Sequence record: OZ035760.1
Origin: Tequatrovirus NIC06P2
DNA length: 64,000 nt
Strand: one strand, 5' to 3'
This document shows, piece by piece, positions 33,328-42,278 of the stretch. Position numbers and translations under genes: made by a program. Positions within the stretch are counted from its first letter, which is position 1, and each line of letters starts with the position of its first letter. The notes under the pieces were generated by a model that made no database searches, was not told where the DNA came from, and saw nothing but the letters and a program-made list of their open reading frames with translations.

Positions 33328-33801
33328 TTATTTGAATGATTTAACGTACTGAATAGAACCTTTACTATTCACAAAGGCAATTTTACCATTTTTGTTATAC
33401 ATGGTAGCAGTACGCTGATAGCCATAAGTTTGTTTACCAGATTGATAACCAACTAATGCAAAATTATCTTCACCCATTTTATTCTGTTTAGCGCGAATGC
33501 GTTCATGACCATGTGCCATAAGAACCTTAGCATCACCAGTTGCAATGGATCTACGAGTTTTTTCATCTTCAACTGTATTAACAAAGTCGTCAAATGAATC
33601 AAATTTAGCATGAGATTTATTATACAGTTTTCCATCTACTGCATAATTATATCCCTGTACATCCATCTCAACTTCTGTACCATCATCCAATACAGCAGTG
33701 ATTTTTTGACCTTTTTTAAATTTCAAAAGATCAGTAAAAGATTCAGCAATAATTTGAGAATTAATAGCTGCTTCAGTGATAAATTCTTGATATGTTTTCA
33801 T
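33328..33801 (-). CDS. Internal-protein-like protein with capsid targeting sequence (157 aa)
   Basis: N-terminus MKTYQEFITEAA matches the T4 IP capsid-targeting sequence MKTYQEFIAE with a protease site after Glu10; SD AGGAAA. Confidence 0.55.
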   Translation of the reverse strand: MKTYQEFITEAAINSQIIAESFTDLLKFKKGQKITAVLDDGTEVEMDVQGYNYAVDGKLYNKSHAKFDSFDDFVNTVEDEKTRRSIATGDAKVLMAHGHERIRAKQNKMGEDNFALVGYQSGKQTYGYQRTATMYNKNGKIAFVNSKGSIQYVKSFK

Positions 33802-33810
33802 ATGTTTCCT

Positions 33811-34227
33811 TTAAATGTAAATATTTTTACCGTAATACTTATACCAATGTGGTTTCATTAAAATTTTTTCATCAAGTCGTTGTTGACTCAATTTAATAGC
33901 TGATTTGCATGGATTATAATCATTTTTCCATTCTACTGGAATATCGCTGATGTCAGGAACTTCAGTATCTTTTATACTGAACCCTCGTTTTAAGCATTCC
34001 GTTATAATGTCCGATTGACGCTTTCGCAAAAATTCTAACTTATCGTAAAAGAAAGTAACATGACCAGAACCTAAAATAAATTTAGAAGATATTTTAAAAT
34101 CTTTAACGCGCTTACCATTTGCCACATGCTTACGAACTATACCAAAAACACGTGGCAATTCACGATATTCTGCGATTAAATGTTGATCAGCAAGTTCAGA
34201 TACTAAAGTCAAATTAATACGAGTCAT
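33811..34227 (-). CDS. denV: Pyrimidine-dimer DNA glycosylase, endonuclease V (DenV)
   Basis: 138 aa; [29 protein letters not shown]...WYKYYGK matches T4 DenV. Confidence 0.9.
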
Positions 34228-34286: not shown

Positions 34287-35255
<969 letters not shown>

Positions 35256-36610: not shown

Positions 36611-37204
36611 TTATTTCAGAGAATTAATGTATTCCTGAACATCGGCAGAGGTAGTTTCAACCCCAGAAATATTACCGTTAAAGGTTTCAACTCGAGCAAG
36701 AGTATCTTCAATATCAACTTTAGTCAGTGCTGCAATTTCAACTACATCATCAGCAGTACTAATTCCAAGGGCATTCGCAGCACGAGTTTCACGGATATAT
36801 TCCAATTTAACTGCAAGTTCTTGGCGAGCATCATCCAATTCAACTACTTTCTTGGCGATTTCAATTCGCATTTCAGCATACCCATCAGCTTTAGTAGTCA
36901 ACTGTTCAGCTGTTCGACGATATAGCAAGCCGAGTTTAGCATGCATTGTTACATCTTGACCTTCGGAAAGAAGCTTGCGAATTTCACGCTCTTTTGATTC
37001 AGCCTGTTTATTCTTTTCAATAACAAGTTCACGAATACGTTTTTCTTCATTAATAGATTTAACAGAAGCAGTTTTTAGGTCTTTAATTTTATCAAGTAAT
37101 TTTGCTGCTGCAGCAGTGTACTGTTCTTCAACAGATAGATTTTTAGCCATAGCAGAACCAAGTTTAGTGCGAATAAACTCAACAATTTTCTTCAGTGTGT
37201 TCAT
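36611..37204 (-). CDS. Coiled-coil protein with PspA/IM30-like pattern (197 aa)
   Basis: All-helical, heptad-rich; loose resemblance to PspA (TLARVETF vs PspA MARFESFE region); unverified. Confidence 0.45.
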
Positions 37205-37217
37205 AGTATTTCCTTAG

Positions 37218-37424
37218 GTTAATTAAGATTTAAAATCCATGAGAGTATTATACTCCGGATAGTTTGTAAACTATTTCAACATCGCCTTTTGCTGCTTTAT
37301 AACCTTCAGCCCAAGATACAACCGAGTTTTTATCCGAAGATTCAAATTCTGGCATTGGGCTTTCGCCAATGTTCACGCAGTATGTTTCTTCATTTTCGTC
37401 GAACCAAATAATTAAAGTAGTCAT
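37218..37424 (-). CDS. Possible small ORF (about 68 aa, MTTLIIWFDENEETY...) absent from track
   Basis: Hand translation with SD GGAGAAATAA; absence from the track suggests I may have a frame error. Confidence 0.25.
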
Positions 37425-37492: not shown

Positions 37493-37756
37493 TTATTTCA
37501 TATTATTGAAATATTCTTCTGCGATTTCATCGTTATCATGGTAAACTTTAGAAGACAGTTTAACATAACCTTCGGCAGTGAACATGTTAATCACAACCTT
37601 TACAGTATACCACTGACCATCTTCATTACCCATTACTGCGTAAGTTTCAAACATCGGATGGTCAGGACCGATAACTTTAATATCATTCACTGTACGGCCA
37701 AAATCTTCTGAAACACATTTCATAAAGAAGTTGAACAGTTCGCCGTAATTATCCAT
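37493..37756 (-). CDS. Hypothetical protein (87 aa from MDNYGELF)
   Basis: SD GGAGAA upstream of ATG at 37756; track N-terminus MVLYNYQ is the promoter read as codons. Confidence 0.45.
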   Translation of the reverse strand: MDNYGELFNFFMKCVSEDFGRTVNDIKVIGPDHPMFETYAVMGNEDGQWYTVKVVINMFTAEGYVKLSSKVYHDNDEIAEEYFNNMK

Positions 37757-37961: not shown

Positions 37962-37989
37962 GCCAAAAAGCCCTATCATTTAGATAGGG
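37962..37989 (-). terminator. Rho-independent terminator after IP-like gene
   Basis: CCCUAUCUAAAUGAUAGGG followed by CUUUUUGG on minus strand. Confidence 0.5.
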
Positions 37990-37997
37990 ATTTAAAA

Positions 37998-38561
37998 TTA
38001 TTTGCTTAGTTTAGTTATTATAGCTTCTGCGGCAGCTTTTAGCTTAGATGCGGTGTTAATACGATTTTTAATTTCAGTATACGCATCGCCAAGAACATCA
38101 AGGCTATCAGAATAAACACTTACACTATTGCGTTCGCTATTTGAAATAGAACCTTTAGTTTTACGATCAAAATCGGTATACACGTCTTGAAGATCGCGTG
38201 CTGCCTTCTTTGCATCATCCAATGCATCAAGAGCTTTATTCAAAGCATTAACGTATTTTTTAGTATCGAACATATTCTTAGAAATTTTAACAGGCGCACG
38301 TTCAGGAGTAGCTAAGGCAGATTTAGGAACCTGAGCGCCTGATGCTAATTTCTTAGAAATTTTGAAAAATGCTTTATTGAATTTATTTTCTTGACTCATC
38401 GTAAAAGAACTATTATCAATGTTATACATTTCAATAGCTTTAGCTTTCCACTTAAGAAAATCGCCACGGTCTTTTGGGTCCAAGTGGAAGAATACTTTAG
38501 TAAGATCTGCTTCAGATGGTAATTTTGCTGCTTCGGTTAAAAATTCGGCATAGGTTTTCAT
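37998..38561 (-). CDS. Internal-protein-like protein with capsid targeting sequence (187 aa)
   Basis: N-terminus MKTYAEFLTEAAK; Lys/Ala-rich helical body. Confidence 0.55.
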   Translation of the reverse strand: MKTYAEFLTEAAKLPSEADLTKVFFHLDPKDRGDFLKWKAKAIEMYNIDNSSFTMSQENKFNKAFFKISKKLASGAQVPKSALATPERAPVKISKNMFDTKKYVNALNKALDALDDAKKAARDLQDVYTDFDRKTKGSISNSERNSVSVYSDSLDVLGDAYTEIKNRINTASKLKAAAEAIITKLSK

Positions 38562-38644
38562 TTAAAATCCTTGAAATAATTTATTGGTTATTAATTATTT
38601 ATCACGTTGTTATATGTAACAGCATTCTCCGAGCGATTCAAACT

Positions 38645-38672
38645 AAAAAGCCCCAACCTTTCTGTCGGGGCT
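38645..38672 (-). terminator. Rho-independent terminator (near-identical copy of 39198-39226)
   Basis: AGCCCCGACAGAAAGGUUGGGGCU followed by UUUUUAG on minus strand. Confidence 0.55.
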
Positions 38673-38678
38673 AAAATG

Positions 38679-39152
38679 TTATTTAATTTGCTTAGCAGAC
38701 CAAATGCGGTCTTTGATAATTTTTTGGATGTCTTCAACATATTCAAGAGAGTGAACATGCGGGTTATCTTTGAAACTATAAGCACGAGCTAGCTTTTGGC
38801 CTTCAGTTTTGATTACTAAAAGCTCTTTAAGGATAGCTTCATATTTGGAGATAATTCCTTTAACGATATTTTTCTCTTGTGTGACTTTAGGATCTGCTTT
38901 AGGAGCAGGTTTACCTGAAGCCTTTGCAAAGGCAGCTCCAGTAGCAACTAAACTTTTCCAAGCCATACTAACTGCATTCCCTGTAAATCCTTCGGCTTTC
39001 ATATCACGAGCAAATTGGAATCGTGATTCATCGGAAGCATCTTTATAGGAATATTTACCCGCGGCAATGGCAGCTTTTGCAACAGCTTGAATTTCGGTGC
39101 TAGATGCTTCATTTAACACCGCTTCATTTAAAAATTGAGCATATGATTTCAT
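38679..39152 (-). CDS. Internal-protein-like protein with capsid targeting sequence (157 aa)
   Basis: N-terminus MKSYAQFLNEAV; bracketed by two near-identical terminator hairpins. Confidence 0.55.
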   Translation of the reverse strand: MKSYAQFLNEAVLNEASSTEIQAVAKAAIAAGKYSYKDASDESRFQFARDMKAEGFTGNAVSMAWKSLVATGAAFAKASGKPAPKADPKVTQEKNIVKGIISKYEAILKELLVIKTEGQKLARAYSFKDNPHVHSLEYVEDIQKIIKDRIWSAKQIK

Positions 39153-39188
39153 CTTATTTCCTGTTTTAATTCGGGGTTTTAATATACT

Positions 39189-39196
39189 TATTTATA
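39189..39196 (-). promoter_or_regulatory. Late promoter TATAAATA upstream of IP-like gene
   Basis: Plus TATTTATA is minus TATAAATA, about 37 nt upstream of ATG 39152. Confidence 0.4.
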
Positions 39197-39197
39197 C

Positions 39198-39226
39198 TAA
39201 AAAGCCCCAACCTTTCGGTCGGGGCT
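39198..39226 (-). terminator. Rho-independent terminator closing the tRNA/stable-RNA transcription unit
   Basis: AGCCCCGACCGAAAGGUUGGGGCU followed by UUUUUAG on minus strand. Confidence 0.55.
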
Positions 39227-39231
39227 AAGCC

Positions 39232-39540
39232 TTGCGGCAACCTTGTCGGGGTTCCACCTGCTAAGGCAAGTGTTTGTACGAAACGCCGGGATTCGAACCC
39301 GGTTATTAAGCAGTTGACGCTACTCAATATTTTTAAAAGGCCATATCTCGACCATATCCGAACGTTCCGTCAAAAACGCTACTCGGCTTACGGCAAAGAT
39401 ATTTCCTCGAATCGATAATTCGGTGCGCCGTTTCTGCTGTGATGTAAGAGGGCATTAGCAGATCGTAAAGATTTGTTAATGCCAGTCCTTAAACAGGGAA
39501 CATCAGTCCGACGACTTACCGGTAGCGACCCGGTTTCTTG
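39232..39540 (-). ncRNA. Candidate small stable RNA region (T4 has two stable RNAs of unknown function in its tRNA cluster)
   Basis: About 300 nt with no convincing ORF between tRNA-Arg and the terminator; contains a tRNA T-arm-like GGGATTCGAACCC and short hairpins but no complete cloverleaf. Confidence 0.3.
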
Positions 39541-39542
39541 TC

Positions 39543-39619
<77 letters not shown>

Positions 39620-39622
39620 TAG

Positions 39623-40288
39623 TTAAAATTTCATTTTTCGACCTTTAAACCATCCTTCTGGAATTGGGTCAGTTTTCTTAATACGTTTAGAAACTTTTTC
39701 ATCTAATGAATGAATCCACATCATACCAAATTGGGAATTCTTTTCACCTTTTTGGTGATTATTTTTAGCATGAATTTCTTTCATTTTATTAATAGTTTCA
39801 AGAGTATGATGCTTATTTAAAAATCGGCTATTATTTAAAAATTTTTCTTTGTATTCAGGAGTTGACCACAAACGGTTAAATACATTTGAACCATTTTTAC
39901 GATATTTTTCTTGAAGTAAAATATCATTTTTAAAACGTGACTTAAACGATTTAGCTCCTTTTAAACTAGCGTCTTTCTTCTGATTTAGCATCTCAGGAAT
40001 ATTTATATGATCCCATCCACCTTCACCGCCAAGTTTTAAATTATACACATCAGGTCTATTTAAAAACTCTTCTGTGACAATATTTTTCTCGGCTTCAAGC
40101 ATAGATTCTTTATCATCAAAATACTCTAATATTTCTTTAGAAAAATTTTCTATGCCATACTTATCTTGGGCTCTTTTTAATAATTTACCAGAACCCATAT
40201 ATCCATCATCTAAATTTTCGGTAGAATGCACACCAATATAAATTTTATTATTAATTTTATTTGTTATTTTATAAAGATAAAAATGCAT
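39623..40288 (-). CDS. segB: GIY-YIG homing endonuclease SegB-like, embedded in the tRNA cluster
   Basis: MHFYLYKITNKINNKIYIGVHS...GYMGSGK GIY-YIG motif; T4 segB lies in the tRNA cluster; track N-terminal extension overlaps a tRNA so start set at 40288. Confidence 0.7.
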   Translation of the reverse strand: MHFYLYKITNKINNKIYIGVHSTENLDDGYMGSGKLLKRAQDKYGIENFSKEILEYFDDKESMLEAEKNIVTEEFLNRPDVYNLKLGGEGGWDHINIPEMLNQKKDASLKGAKSFKSRFKNDILLQEKYRKNGSNVFNRLWSTPEYKEKFLNNSRFLNKHHTLETINKMKEIHAKNNHQKGEKNSQFGMMWIHSLDEKVSKRIKKTDPIPEGWFKGRKMKF

Positions 40289-40334
40289 ATCAGTCCCTAA
40301 TAAAGAACTGAGCGTCTCACGACGAGTCATAAAT

Positions 40335-40421
40335 TGGTGGGGAGTGGTGGAGTCGAACCACCCGAGTCGCAATGACAATGGATTTACAGTCCACACCGCT
40401 ACCTCTACGGGATAACTCCCC
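40335..40421 (-). tRNA. Class II tRNA with anticodon GUA (tRNA-Tyr-like), 87 nt, CCA encoded
   Basis: Hand-folded: acceptor GGGGAGU/ACUCCCC (7 bp), anticodon stem GUGGA/UCCAU, loop CUGUAAA, long variable arm, T-arm GGUGG-UUCGACU-CCACC; anticodon loop identical to E. coli tRNA-Tyr. Confidence 0.6.
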
Positions 40422-40430
40422 TAATTAATT

Positions 40431-40507
40431 TGGTGACCCAGACCAGATTTGAACTGGTAACCTTTCCCTTATGAGGGGACTGCTGCTAACCATTGAGCTA
40501 CAGGGCC
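40431..40507 (-). tRNA. tRNA with anticodon CAU (T4 tRNA-Ile type, reading AUA after modification; tRNA-Met not excluded)
   Basis: T-arm ACCAG-UUCAAAU-CUGGU, acceptor about 6 of 7 bp, anticodon loop CUCAUAA; CCA encoded. Confidence 0.65.
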
Positions 40508-41986: not shown

Positions 41987-42014
41987 TTTATTCTCCTCAG
42001 TAGTTGATAGGGTA

Positions 42015-42044
42015 ATAGTATCACCACCCTATCTAAAAGTAAAC
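42015..42044 (-). promoter_or_regulatory. T4 early-type promoter (GTTTAC, 18 nt, TACTAT)
   Basis: Minus strand: AAGTTTACTTTTAGATAGGGTGGTGATACTATTACCCTATCAACTAC. Confidence 0.5.
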
Positions 42045-42278
42045 TTATTTTTTACGAAAAATTGATTTATTTTCTGCTGCCCATTTTTCAATAACTGCAG
42101 CCGGACCAGTAACAACAATTTTATCACCGTAATCTTCTGCGGCGAGTTGACCGAAATTATCTAATGCATCACGAAGAACTCCATGAGGCATTTCACCCAT
42201 TTTATCTTTCTTGCCAGTGTAAATAAACTCAACTTTTACATCAGAAGATTCAGCGATAAATTCTTTAAACGTTTTCAT
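42045..42278 (-). CDS. Internal-protein-like small protein (77 aa) with capsid targeting sequence; T4 ipI position
   Basis: N-terminus MKTFKEFIAESS; located between the tRNA cluster and 57B as ipI is in T4. Confidence 0.55.
   Translation of the reverse strand: MKTFKEFIAESSDVKVEFIYTGKKDKMGEMPHGVLRDALDNFGQLAAEDYGDKIVVTGPAAVIEKWAAENKSIFRKK

Follow-up and report, generated by a model that had tools for sequence, protein, structure and literature searches.

In the T4-like phage Tequatrovirus NIC06P2 we found two adjacent genes whose products are probably, judging from their sequences, packaged internal proteins (IPs) that are processed by gp21 and encoded in recombining late cassettes. The genes, which we call IP187 and IP157 after the lengths of their products, lie between rnaC and e.8 on the minus strand of a stretch of 64,000 nucleotides from sequence record OZ035760.1, hereafter the window (Table 1). 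We consider that this interval, running from the rnaC terminator to the e.8 promoter, is a third polymorphic IP locus, which had gone unnoted in an earlier description made from the letters of the same DNA (the first-pass annotation). That annotation had nevertheless proposed that both genes encode internal proteins, and the proposal is supported by the conserved positions of their capsid-targeting sequence (CTS), by an L/I-x-E motif followed by Ala, by a late-promoter motif in the case of IP157 and by the basic, Cys-free bodies of the two proteins.

Both open reading frames (ORFs) are present on the minus strand with the N-termini that had been reported, MKTYAEFLTE in IP187 and MKSYAQFLNE in IP157. 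The resemblance claimed for them to the T4 leader MKTYQEFIAE, which is the IPII/IPIII leader in the T4 record, holds as well, with seven of the ten residues in common for IP187 and five for IP157. Furthermore, Tyr4, Phe7, Leu8 and Glu10, followed by Ala, occur in both proteins, and the gp21-type sites predicted from the sequence are L8-T-E10/A in IP187 and L8-N-E10/A in IP157. These are the positions that matter in T4 IPIII, where the first ten residues are enough for packaging, the main determinants of targeting are residues 4 and 7 and those of processing residues 8 and 10; the CTS alone packages foreign proteins and gp21 cleavage follows L/I-x-E (PMC9026906, a review of the work of the Black laboratory). 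Translating the window in six frames gave three occurrences of the pattern M-K-x-Y-x-x-F-x-x-E, each of them opening a long minus-strand ORF, whereas the mean over 400 shuffles was 0-0.005, and therefore a chance match is excluded. Diverged relatives, whose bodies are 25-60% identical and which use other codons, retain the functionally mapped positions in their leaders: MKFKEFLAE in Klebsiella phages, MLEYSEFLKE in the Yersinia phage fHe-Yen9-01 and MITFNEFLNE in a metagenomic protein of 204 aa. That these positions are kept at such a low identity of the bodies points to selection on the leader and not to recent copying.

The leader of IP157 is extended by a tandem pentapeptide, FLNEA/VLNEA (residues 6-15), so that a second L-x-E motif (residues 13-15, within VLNE at 12-15) stands five residues after the first one. 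An extension of the form E-[SA]-[IV]-L-N-E after the CTS was also seen in several unrelated IPs of relatives, namely a 93-aa protein in L005, a 90-aa protein in L007 and the 205-aa protein of L008. This suggests, from sequence, a subset of IPs with an extended leader that could be cleaved twice. The predicted N-terminal peptides of the mature protein in the phiD1 orthologue of IP157 would be AVLNEASSTEIQAVAK or ASSTEIQAVAK, depending on whether it starts at Ala11 or at Ala16, and the one predicted for mature IP187 (IP187*) is AAKLPSEADLTK.

Regarding the virion, the orthologue of IP157 in the Yersinia phage phiD1 is g140, with few residue differences, and it was scored PPAP (particle-associated) by liquid chromatography and tandem mass spectrometry (LC-MS/MS) of purified virions (PMC8309999, Table S3). 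The virion data of phiD1 are public under PXD026812, and its Ip4 is g129. The paper on phage fPS-90 contains no proteomics. One could also suppose that the leader is a recombination relic acquired from ip genes and that the proteins are unpackaged, remaining in the cytoplasm and acting late. This would be compatible with the phiD1 proteome, which lists clearly non-structural proteins too, and packaging in the present phage is an inference. However, mapped residues that are conserved through different codons in such diverged proteins are unlike a relic, the ten-residue CTS by itself packages foreign proteins in T4 (PMC9026906), and the late-promoter layout described below matches the timing of prohead assembly. 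On these three grounds we rejected the relic, which we hold to be highly improbable.

The second line of evidence is the arrangement of the genes, each of which had been placed in its own terminator-bracketed cassette. In the case of IP157 the brackets are hairpins A and A', and they are near-identical as described (23 of 24 positions, with one mismatch in a loop base; 0 such matches in 100 shuffles). Hairpin A is the intrinsic terminator of the tRNA-rnaD-rnaC unit and is found in single copy at the rnaC/e.8 junction of T4. Hairpin A' terminates the IP157 cassette, is also the upstream bracket of IP187 and forms the cassette junction in all the configurations that we compared. The IP187 cassette is bracketed too, by A' and by a different terminator, hairpin B, which lies just outside the segment delimited in the first-pass annotation. 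On the 3' side of hairpin B the window has a T4-like junction, CTTTTTGG/CATCTAGACC, and most relatives have TATCTAGGCC; the hairpin B junction is kept in RB14, RB69, L002, L005, L006 and L012. We also observed that the stem of hairpin B, CCCTATC/GATAGGG, has the same heptamer pair as a stem-loop located 3' of the IP gene of the ipI locus (GATAGGGTGGTGATACTATTACCCTATC), which may be either chance or a linker motif shared by both IP loci.

The late-promoter motif that had been noticed upstream of IP157 is TATAAATA, located between hairpin A and the ribosome-binding site (RBS). The octamer alone is not enriched in the AT-rich window (13 occurrences against 10.8 expected), and its significance comes from its position, which is conserved in every related locus of three genera. 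Actually, xATAAATA is found just after the terminator in all the related loci examined, mostly as an exact TATAAATA and as AATAAATA in L006 and L007, and the layout of terminator, xATAAATA and around 36 nt to the ATG is kept in Tequatrovirus, Mosigvirus-like and Jiaodavirus loci despite their diverged flanks. A scan of the IP157 linker for -35/-10 elements gave no good sigma-70-like pair, and TATAAATA follows the terminator directly. Upstream of IP187 there is a putative promoter, GATAAATA, whose ATAAATA core stands at the same distance in L002, L005, L006, L012, RB14 and RB69, as AATAAATA or GATAAATA.

In order to compare the locus among phages, we extracted the interval from T4, RB14, RB27, RB69, phiD1, fPS-90 and ten IMG/VR contigs, and we also compared the Klebsiella phage KpV477. 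Four clean configurations were found, with most junctions identical to the base and differences of one or two bases in the window and a few other loci. T4 has no cassette and reads hairpinA-TTTTTGG / TATCTAAGCC, the latter being the e.8 promoter region. IP157 alone is present in phiD1, RB27, L003 and L004, as hairpinA-TTTTTGG / TATAAATA...IP157...hairpinA'-TTTTTGG / TATCTAGGCC, and IP187 alone in RB14 and RB69, as hairpinA-TTTTTAG / TTTGAATC...(G/A)ATAAATA...IP187...hairpinB-TTTTTGG / TATCTAGGCC. Finally, the window, L002, L005, L012 and L006 carry both cassettes in series. Further examples of phages with the two genes are HMD-9, ime09 and HP3. In some Mosigvirus-like contigs a 205-aa relative fills the rnaC-e.8 slot instead. 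In KpV477, a Jiaodavirus, the layout is the same and the sequence has diverged: hairpin, AG, TATAAATA, 36 nt and the ATG of a gene starting MKFKEFLAE. The precise junctions at hairpin-TTTTT(A/G)G and the pattern of presence and absence bear out the modular unit that had been suggested for IP157, and the comparison shows that the cassettes are independent units, which recombine at the hairpin linker.

Two of the known phages deserve a comment on their annotation. In RB14 the IP187 gene corresponds to RB14ncORF136c, and in RB69 it corresponds to ORF149c/148c (NC_004928, our locus L016, 11429-11991), where a frameshift, or else an error of sequencing, has broken it in two. Over its first 122 residues the product of this split gene is nearly identical to the protein of the window, and the stretch from e.8 to IP187 has 93% nucleotide identity between RB69 and the window even though RB69 is a Mosigvirus. 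Such an identity across genera fits horizontal exchange, and it hints, at the level of sequence, at a recent lateral transfer of the RB69 cassette. Another broken gene was seen in KpV477 (L017, 2495-3030), whose homologue, made of the N-domain of the 157 family and another C-domain, is interrupted by an in-frame TAA. Intact versions of 177 aa exist in other Klebsiella phages (P0022), and the TAA may mark a pseudogene, come from a mistake in sequencing or be peculiar to the strain.

The linker has a parallel in the PeSL cassettes of RB49 and phi1 (Arbiol et al. 2010, PMC2839356), in which a promoter-stem-loop linker flanks single accessory ORFs and recombination between linkers gives clean insertions or deletions that leave the neighbouring transcription undisturbed. 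However, PeSL carries a sigma-70-like early promoter, whereas here there is a late-promoter motif and what is repeated is the terminator hairpin with TTTTT(A/G)G. The rnaC-e.8 cassettes are therefore an analogue of PeSL and not a member of it.

With regard to the proteins themselves, after removal of ten residues mature IP187 would have 19.7 kDa, a pI of 9.54 and a net charge of +9, and mature IP157 16.1 kDa, a pI of 9.50 and a net charge of +7. Both are Lys-rich and Cys-free. The corresponding values in T4 are a pI of 9.56 for IPII* and 20.4 kDa, a pI of 9.65 and a net charge of +10 for IPIII*. AlphaFold predicts that both proteins are all-helical, with a small N-terminal helical domain, a linker rich in Pro, Lys and Ala and a long C-terminal helical hairpin. 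Compared with T4 IPI-III and with Ip4-Ip10 of the T-even phages (a set attributed to Repoila et al. 1994, Mullaney & Black 1996 and Silas et al. 2025), they have in common the ten-residue CTS with Tyr4, Phe7, L/I-x-E and Ala at P1'. They are also small, basic, Cys-free and non-essential-looking, they show presence/absence polymorphism and their bodies have no homology in the databases.

Both proteins match PHROG 2280, labelled as "unknown function", over their full length (E = 1.7e-60 for IP157 and 1.4e-53 for IP187). The same group takes in the 205-aa protein found at this locus (L008/L010), the Klebsiella proteins of 177 aa and the metagenomic protein of 204 aa. In a BLASTP comparison IP157 and IP187 have only the leader in common, and hhalign gave a weak C-terminal match with a probability of 16%. 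Their kinship is therefore indirect, because both match the whole PHROG and a chain of relatives joins them. In the proteins from Klebsiella and Yersinia phages the N-domain is that of the 157 family, with the invariant AGKYSY...E.R..F..D...GF, and it is joined to a C-domain akin to the one in the 205-aa protein (P0022 of Klebsiella against L008, E = 4e-6). The 205-aa protein of L008 aligns in turn with IP187 over its full length at 23% identity, and so does the 204-aa metagenomic protein (P0027) at 28% identity, with a HMMER E-value of 4.2e-6. By these sequence comparisons IP157 and IP187 are remote mosaic relatives within one family. In this they differ from the classical IPs, since T4 IPI, IPII and IPIII, as well as the Ip4-like and 77-aa ORFs of the window, belong each to its own PHROG, all of them named internal virion protein.

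We found homologues of IP157 in 511 phage records and of IP187 in 164, all of them labelled hypothetical among the records listed, whereas about 780 records match this genomic region. A HMMER search of IP187 against 1.84 billion representatives returned five matches, all of them phage, which leaves no cellular homologue to hint at a function. Outside the T4-like phages no homologue of either protein was found, the exhaustive search included. A Pfam hit to Cytochrome b562, whose 17 bits fell short of the cut-off of 30, was discarded as noise below the threshold; NCBIfam gave no match and the PDB sequence profiles no meaningful one. The best Foldseek match of the IP157 model in the PDB had an E-value of 1.5 and consisted of generic helical bundles, and against BFVD the model found its own relatives only. 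With a pLDDT of 62, the IP187 model did not seem to us good enough to be compared by fold. A clear relationship to a housekeeping enzyme, which would have spoken against internal proteins, was looked for, and there was no enzyme or housekeeping family among the Pfam, NCBIfam, PDB-sequence and Foldseek matches; this candidate was therefore rejected.

The region of the window matches many Tequatrovirus (T4-like) genomes from Escherichia, Shigella, Yersinia and Salmonella hosts at 92-96% identity, and the window itself is Tequatrovirus, with the genes of the region on the minus strand. The gene order was obtained by comparison with the annotated T4 record and by BLAST of the T4 features onto the window, and Table 1 gives it along the direction of transcription. 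An Rfam scan of the region detected tRNAs only; the positions of rnaC and rnaD come from a BLAST comparison with T4. The rnaC-e.8 interval of T4 is gene-free in its record. The two classical IP loci are the ipI locus (57B-tRNA.4) and the ipII/ipIII locus (denV-e), and the rnaC-e.8 locus is distinct from both of them.

Table 1. Features of the rnaC-e.8 locus and of its surroundings (positions in the window; genes of the region in order of transcription, other IP loci last)
Feature	Position	Strand	Remarks
tRNA cluster and segB	ahead of tRNA-Arg	-	first in transcription order
segB-like ORF	39623-40396 and 40335-40507	-	GIY-YIG homing endonuclease
tRNA-Arg	39543-39619	-	
rnaD	39422-39538	-	BLAST to T4
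rnaC	39277-39415	-	BLAST to T4
Hairpin A	39203-39226	-	AGCCCCAACCTTTCGGTCGGGGCT; 10-bp stem plus TTTTT; -20.3 kcal/mol, z -3.8
Late-promoter motif of IP157	39189-39196	-	TATAAATA; matches T4 late-promoter consensus; 36 nt 5' of ATG
IP157	38679-39152	-	157 aa
IP157 leader	39123-39152	-	MKSYAQFLNE
IP157 tandem pentapeptide	39108-39137	-	FLNEA/VLNEA
Hairpin A'	38649-38672	-	AGCCCCAACCTTTCTGTCGGGGCT; stem-loop then TTTTT on transcribed strand; -16.3 kcal/mol, z -4.8
Late-promoter-like motif of IP187	38596-38603	-	GATAAATA; 7/8 match; 34 nt 5' of ATG
IP187	37998-38561	-	187 aa
IP187 leader	38532-38561	-	MKTYAEFLTE
Hairpin B	37971-37989	-	-10.5 kcal/mol, z -2.1
e.8	37493-37756	-	BLAST of T4 features
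58-aa ORF	37248-37424	-	in e.6-e.8 gap
e.6	36611-37204	-	
e	34287-34781		
denV	33811-34227		
Ip4-like ORF	33328-33801	-	157 aa; MKTYQEFITE
ipI-locus ORF	42045-42278	-	77 aa; MKTFKEFIAE
Stem-loop 3' of ipI-locus ORF	42010-42040	-	GATAGGGTGGTGATACTATTACCCTATC

The new locus differs from the classical ones in its signals as well as in its position. It has a GC-rich intrinsic terminator and TATAAATA, whereas the classical ip genes of T4 and of the window have early-type promoters and AT-rich stem-loops, share the leader sequence AATATTTACATTTAAAGGAAACATATG and show no TATAAATA within 110 nt. In the records of RB14 and RB69 the names Ip4, Ip5 and 'internal head protein' are given to genes at the classical loci, but the genes of the rnaC-e.8 interval are called hypothetical. 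More than 30 IP variants are reportedly described in Comeau 2007. A third IP locus seems to be unrecorded in the literature that we found, with earlier recognition in Repoila 1994 or Comeau 2007 being possible. One paper in this literature holds that IP genes are absent outside the two loci. Silas et al. 2025 speak of the two Ip loci and tested ip1-10 (PMC12373910), and the sequences of IP157 and IP187 are not in their supplements.

Both genes thus lie outside the two described polymorphic IP loci; location is a usual trait of IPs and not a strictly defining one. Several observations weigh against our interpretation. The phiD1 proteome is unspecific, since 113-137 of its 277 gene products were scored as particle-associated, with DenV, lysozyme e and NudE among them (PMC8309999). 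In the literature we found no proteomic data on IP187, and it is by inference that packaging, processing and injection are assigned to the proteins of this phage, the virion listing being that of the phiD1 orthologue of IP157. The late-promoter motif of IP187 matches at only seven of eight positions and stands behind a strong terminator, and the confidence of the models is modest for IP157 (pLDDT 75.6) and low for IP187 (62.3). Furthermore, no likeness of sequence or fold links either protein to IPI*, Ip2 or Ip3 (separate PHROGs; Foldseek), and therefore a target cannot be inferred from likeness. Finally, all the genes examined at the locus belong to one family with a linker rich in Pro, Lys and Ala, whereas the classical loci hold unrelated proteins, so that a generic DNA-associated role fits as well as a specific inhibitor.

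If the two proteins are packaged, the following sequence of events can be proposed. Each gene would be a self-contained late cassette, made up, as its motifs suggest, of a terminator hairpin, a late promoter, an RBS, the gene and a second terminator. With this layout transcription would take place while the proheads are being built. The ten-residue leader would dock the protein into the scaffolding core through Tyr4 and Phe7, and gp21 would then cut after Leu8-x-Glu10, leaving basic products of ~19.7 and ~16.1 kDa with the DNA. Docking and processing are proposed because the residues mapped in T4 IPIII are exactly conserved, with partial backing from the virion proteomics of the 157-aa orthologue. 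By analogy, the proteins might enter the host together with the injected DNA and act ahead of any phage gene expression. The cassettes themselves are gained, lost and combined by homologous recombination in the repeated hairpin/TTTTTGG linker, as the comparison of genomes shows.

Regarding the function, we give about even chances to an anti-defence role of any kind, on the analogy with T4. There Ip1 (IPI*), Ip2 and Ip3 inhibit GmrSD variants, a different one in each case (PMC12373910; also PMC3012670, PMC9391042), and the analogy is the stronger because all three have been reported as GmrSD inhibitors (PMC12373910). By the same analogy, the most plausible role would be a stoichiometric inhibition of GmrSD-type Type IV nucleases, which attack T-even DNA in its modified form, as in Ip1-3; GmrSD as the specific target can be put forward only tentatively and is on balance doubtful. 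IPI*, whose structure as a GmrS/GmrD inhibitor is in the PDB, would have the same predicted delivery and possibly the same purpose. However, its fold is a compact alpha/beta one and its leader has 19 residues, unlike the two-domain helical architecture with a linker predicted here.

The main rival of a specific anti-defence role, although the two are not mutually exclusive, is that the packaged proteins do a structural or physical job, neutralising and organising the DNA or aiding its ejection, and that they replace IPII and IPIII without any specific host target. Mature IP187 closely mirrors IPIII* in mass, pI and charge, the phage has neither ipII nor ipIII, and all the proteins examined from the locus have an architecture in common, whose PK/PA-rich linker is longer in the 205-aa variant; in addition, Lys residues of T4 IPs touch DNA phosphates according to NMR (PMC3012670). 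Yet T4 IPII and IPIII are equally basic and are specific GmrSD inhibitors (PMC12373910). The replacement is not strictly complementary either, since both ipIII and IP187 are missing from the stretch of phiD1 that was examined and in L003 ipIII is accompanied by a 153-aa variant, and the presence/absence polymorphism and the mosaic C-terminal domains resemble the variation of an arms race. Taken as the sole function, this role appears to us rather unlikely.

An anti-defence role could also be directed at a host system that acts early and does not belong to Type IV, such as Type I or III restriction-modification, BREX, RecBCD-like nucleases or abortive-infection sensors. When the ten classical ip genes were assayed against five more active GmrSD clusters no reproducible inhibition was seen (PMC12373910, Supplementary Fig. 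9), which means that not every IP need target GmrSD. Besides, the N-domain of the 157 family has been conserved among phages that infect E. coli, Klebsiella and Yersinia, which would fit a broadly conserved target. However, Ip1-3, the sole IPs whose targets are known, all act on GmrSD enzymes, and we regard a target of this other kind as unlikely. A more specific proposal is that PHROG 2280 is an unrecognised family of injected IPs, occupying a third slot driven by late promoters in Tequatrovirus, Mosigvirus and Jiaodavirus. It would supply the missing inhibitors of those GmrSD or other Type IV variants that act against T-even phages and that none of Ip1-10 neutralises, with the N-domain providing a common function and the swapped C-domains the specificity. 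This is speculative and we would not expect it to hold in all its parts.

The classical loci of the window are also occupied. Directly downstream of denV there is an Ip4-like ORF, which is the 'Ip4' of RB14 and T2 (PHROG 3155, internal virion protein) and whose 5' leader is AATATTTACATTTAAAGGAAACATATG, as in T4 ipII and ipIII. As denV adjoins e, the phage is without ipII and ipIII. At the ipI locus, the 77-aa ORF (PHROG 8111, internal virion protein) has on both sides elements that resemble early promoters and in which AT-rich stem-loops are embedded (GTTTACA...GATGAGGTAGTGATACTATTACCTCATC). Among the other neighbours, the segB-like ORF has 96% identity to T4 segB across 652 nt, and its longest reading frame overlaps the tRNA-Tyr gene. 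The latter is an extra tRNA with respect to T4, and the tRNA with a CAU anticodon is Met according to ARAGORN and Ile in the T4 annotation. T4 e.7 has no counterpart in the window by BLAST, and the ORF lying in the e.6-e.8 gap resembles RB14ncORF134c / RB69ORF145c in position and size.

Internal proteins are the first phage molecules that meet the immunity of the host, and several Type IV enzymes active against T-even phages lack a known inhibitor. IP157 and IP187 are abundant and testable candidates for these orphan inhibitors. The four-state polymorphism of the cassettes is in itself a neat natural case of terminator-mediated modular shuffling. Furthermore, the recognition of both proteins as IPs would enlarge the IP repertoire, would correct the view in the literature that only two loci hold ip genes and would add candidate host-range determinants in therapeutic T4-like phages.

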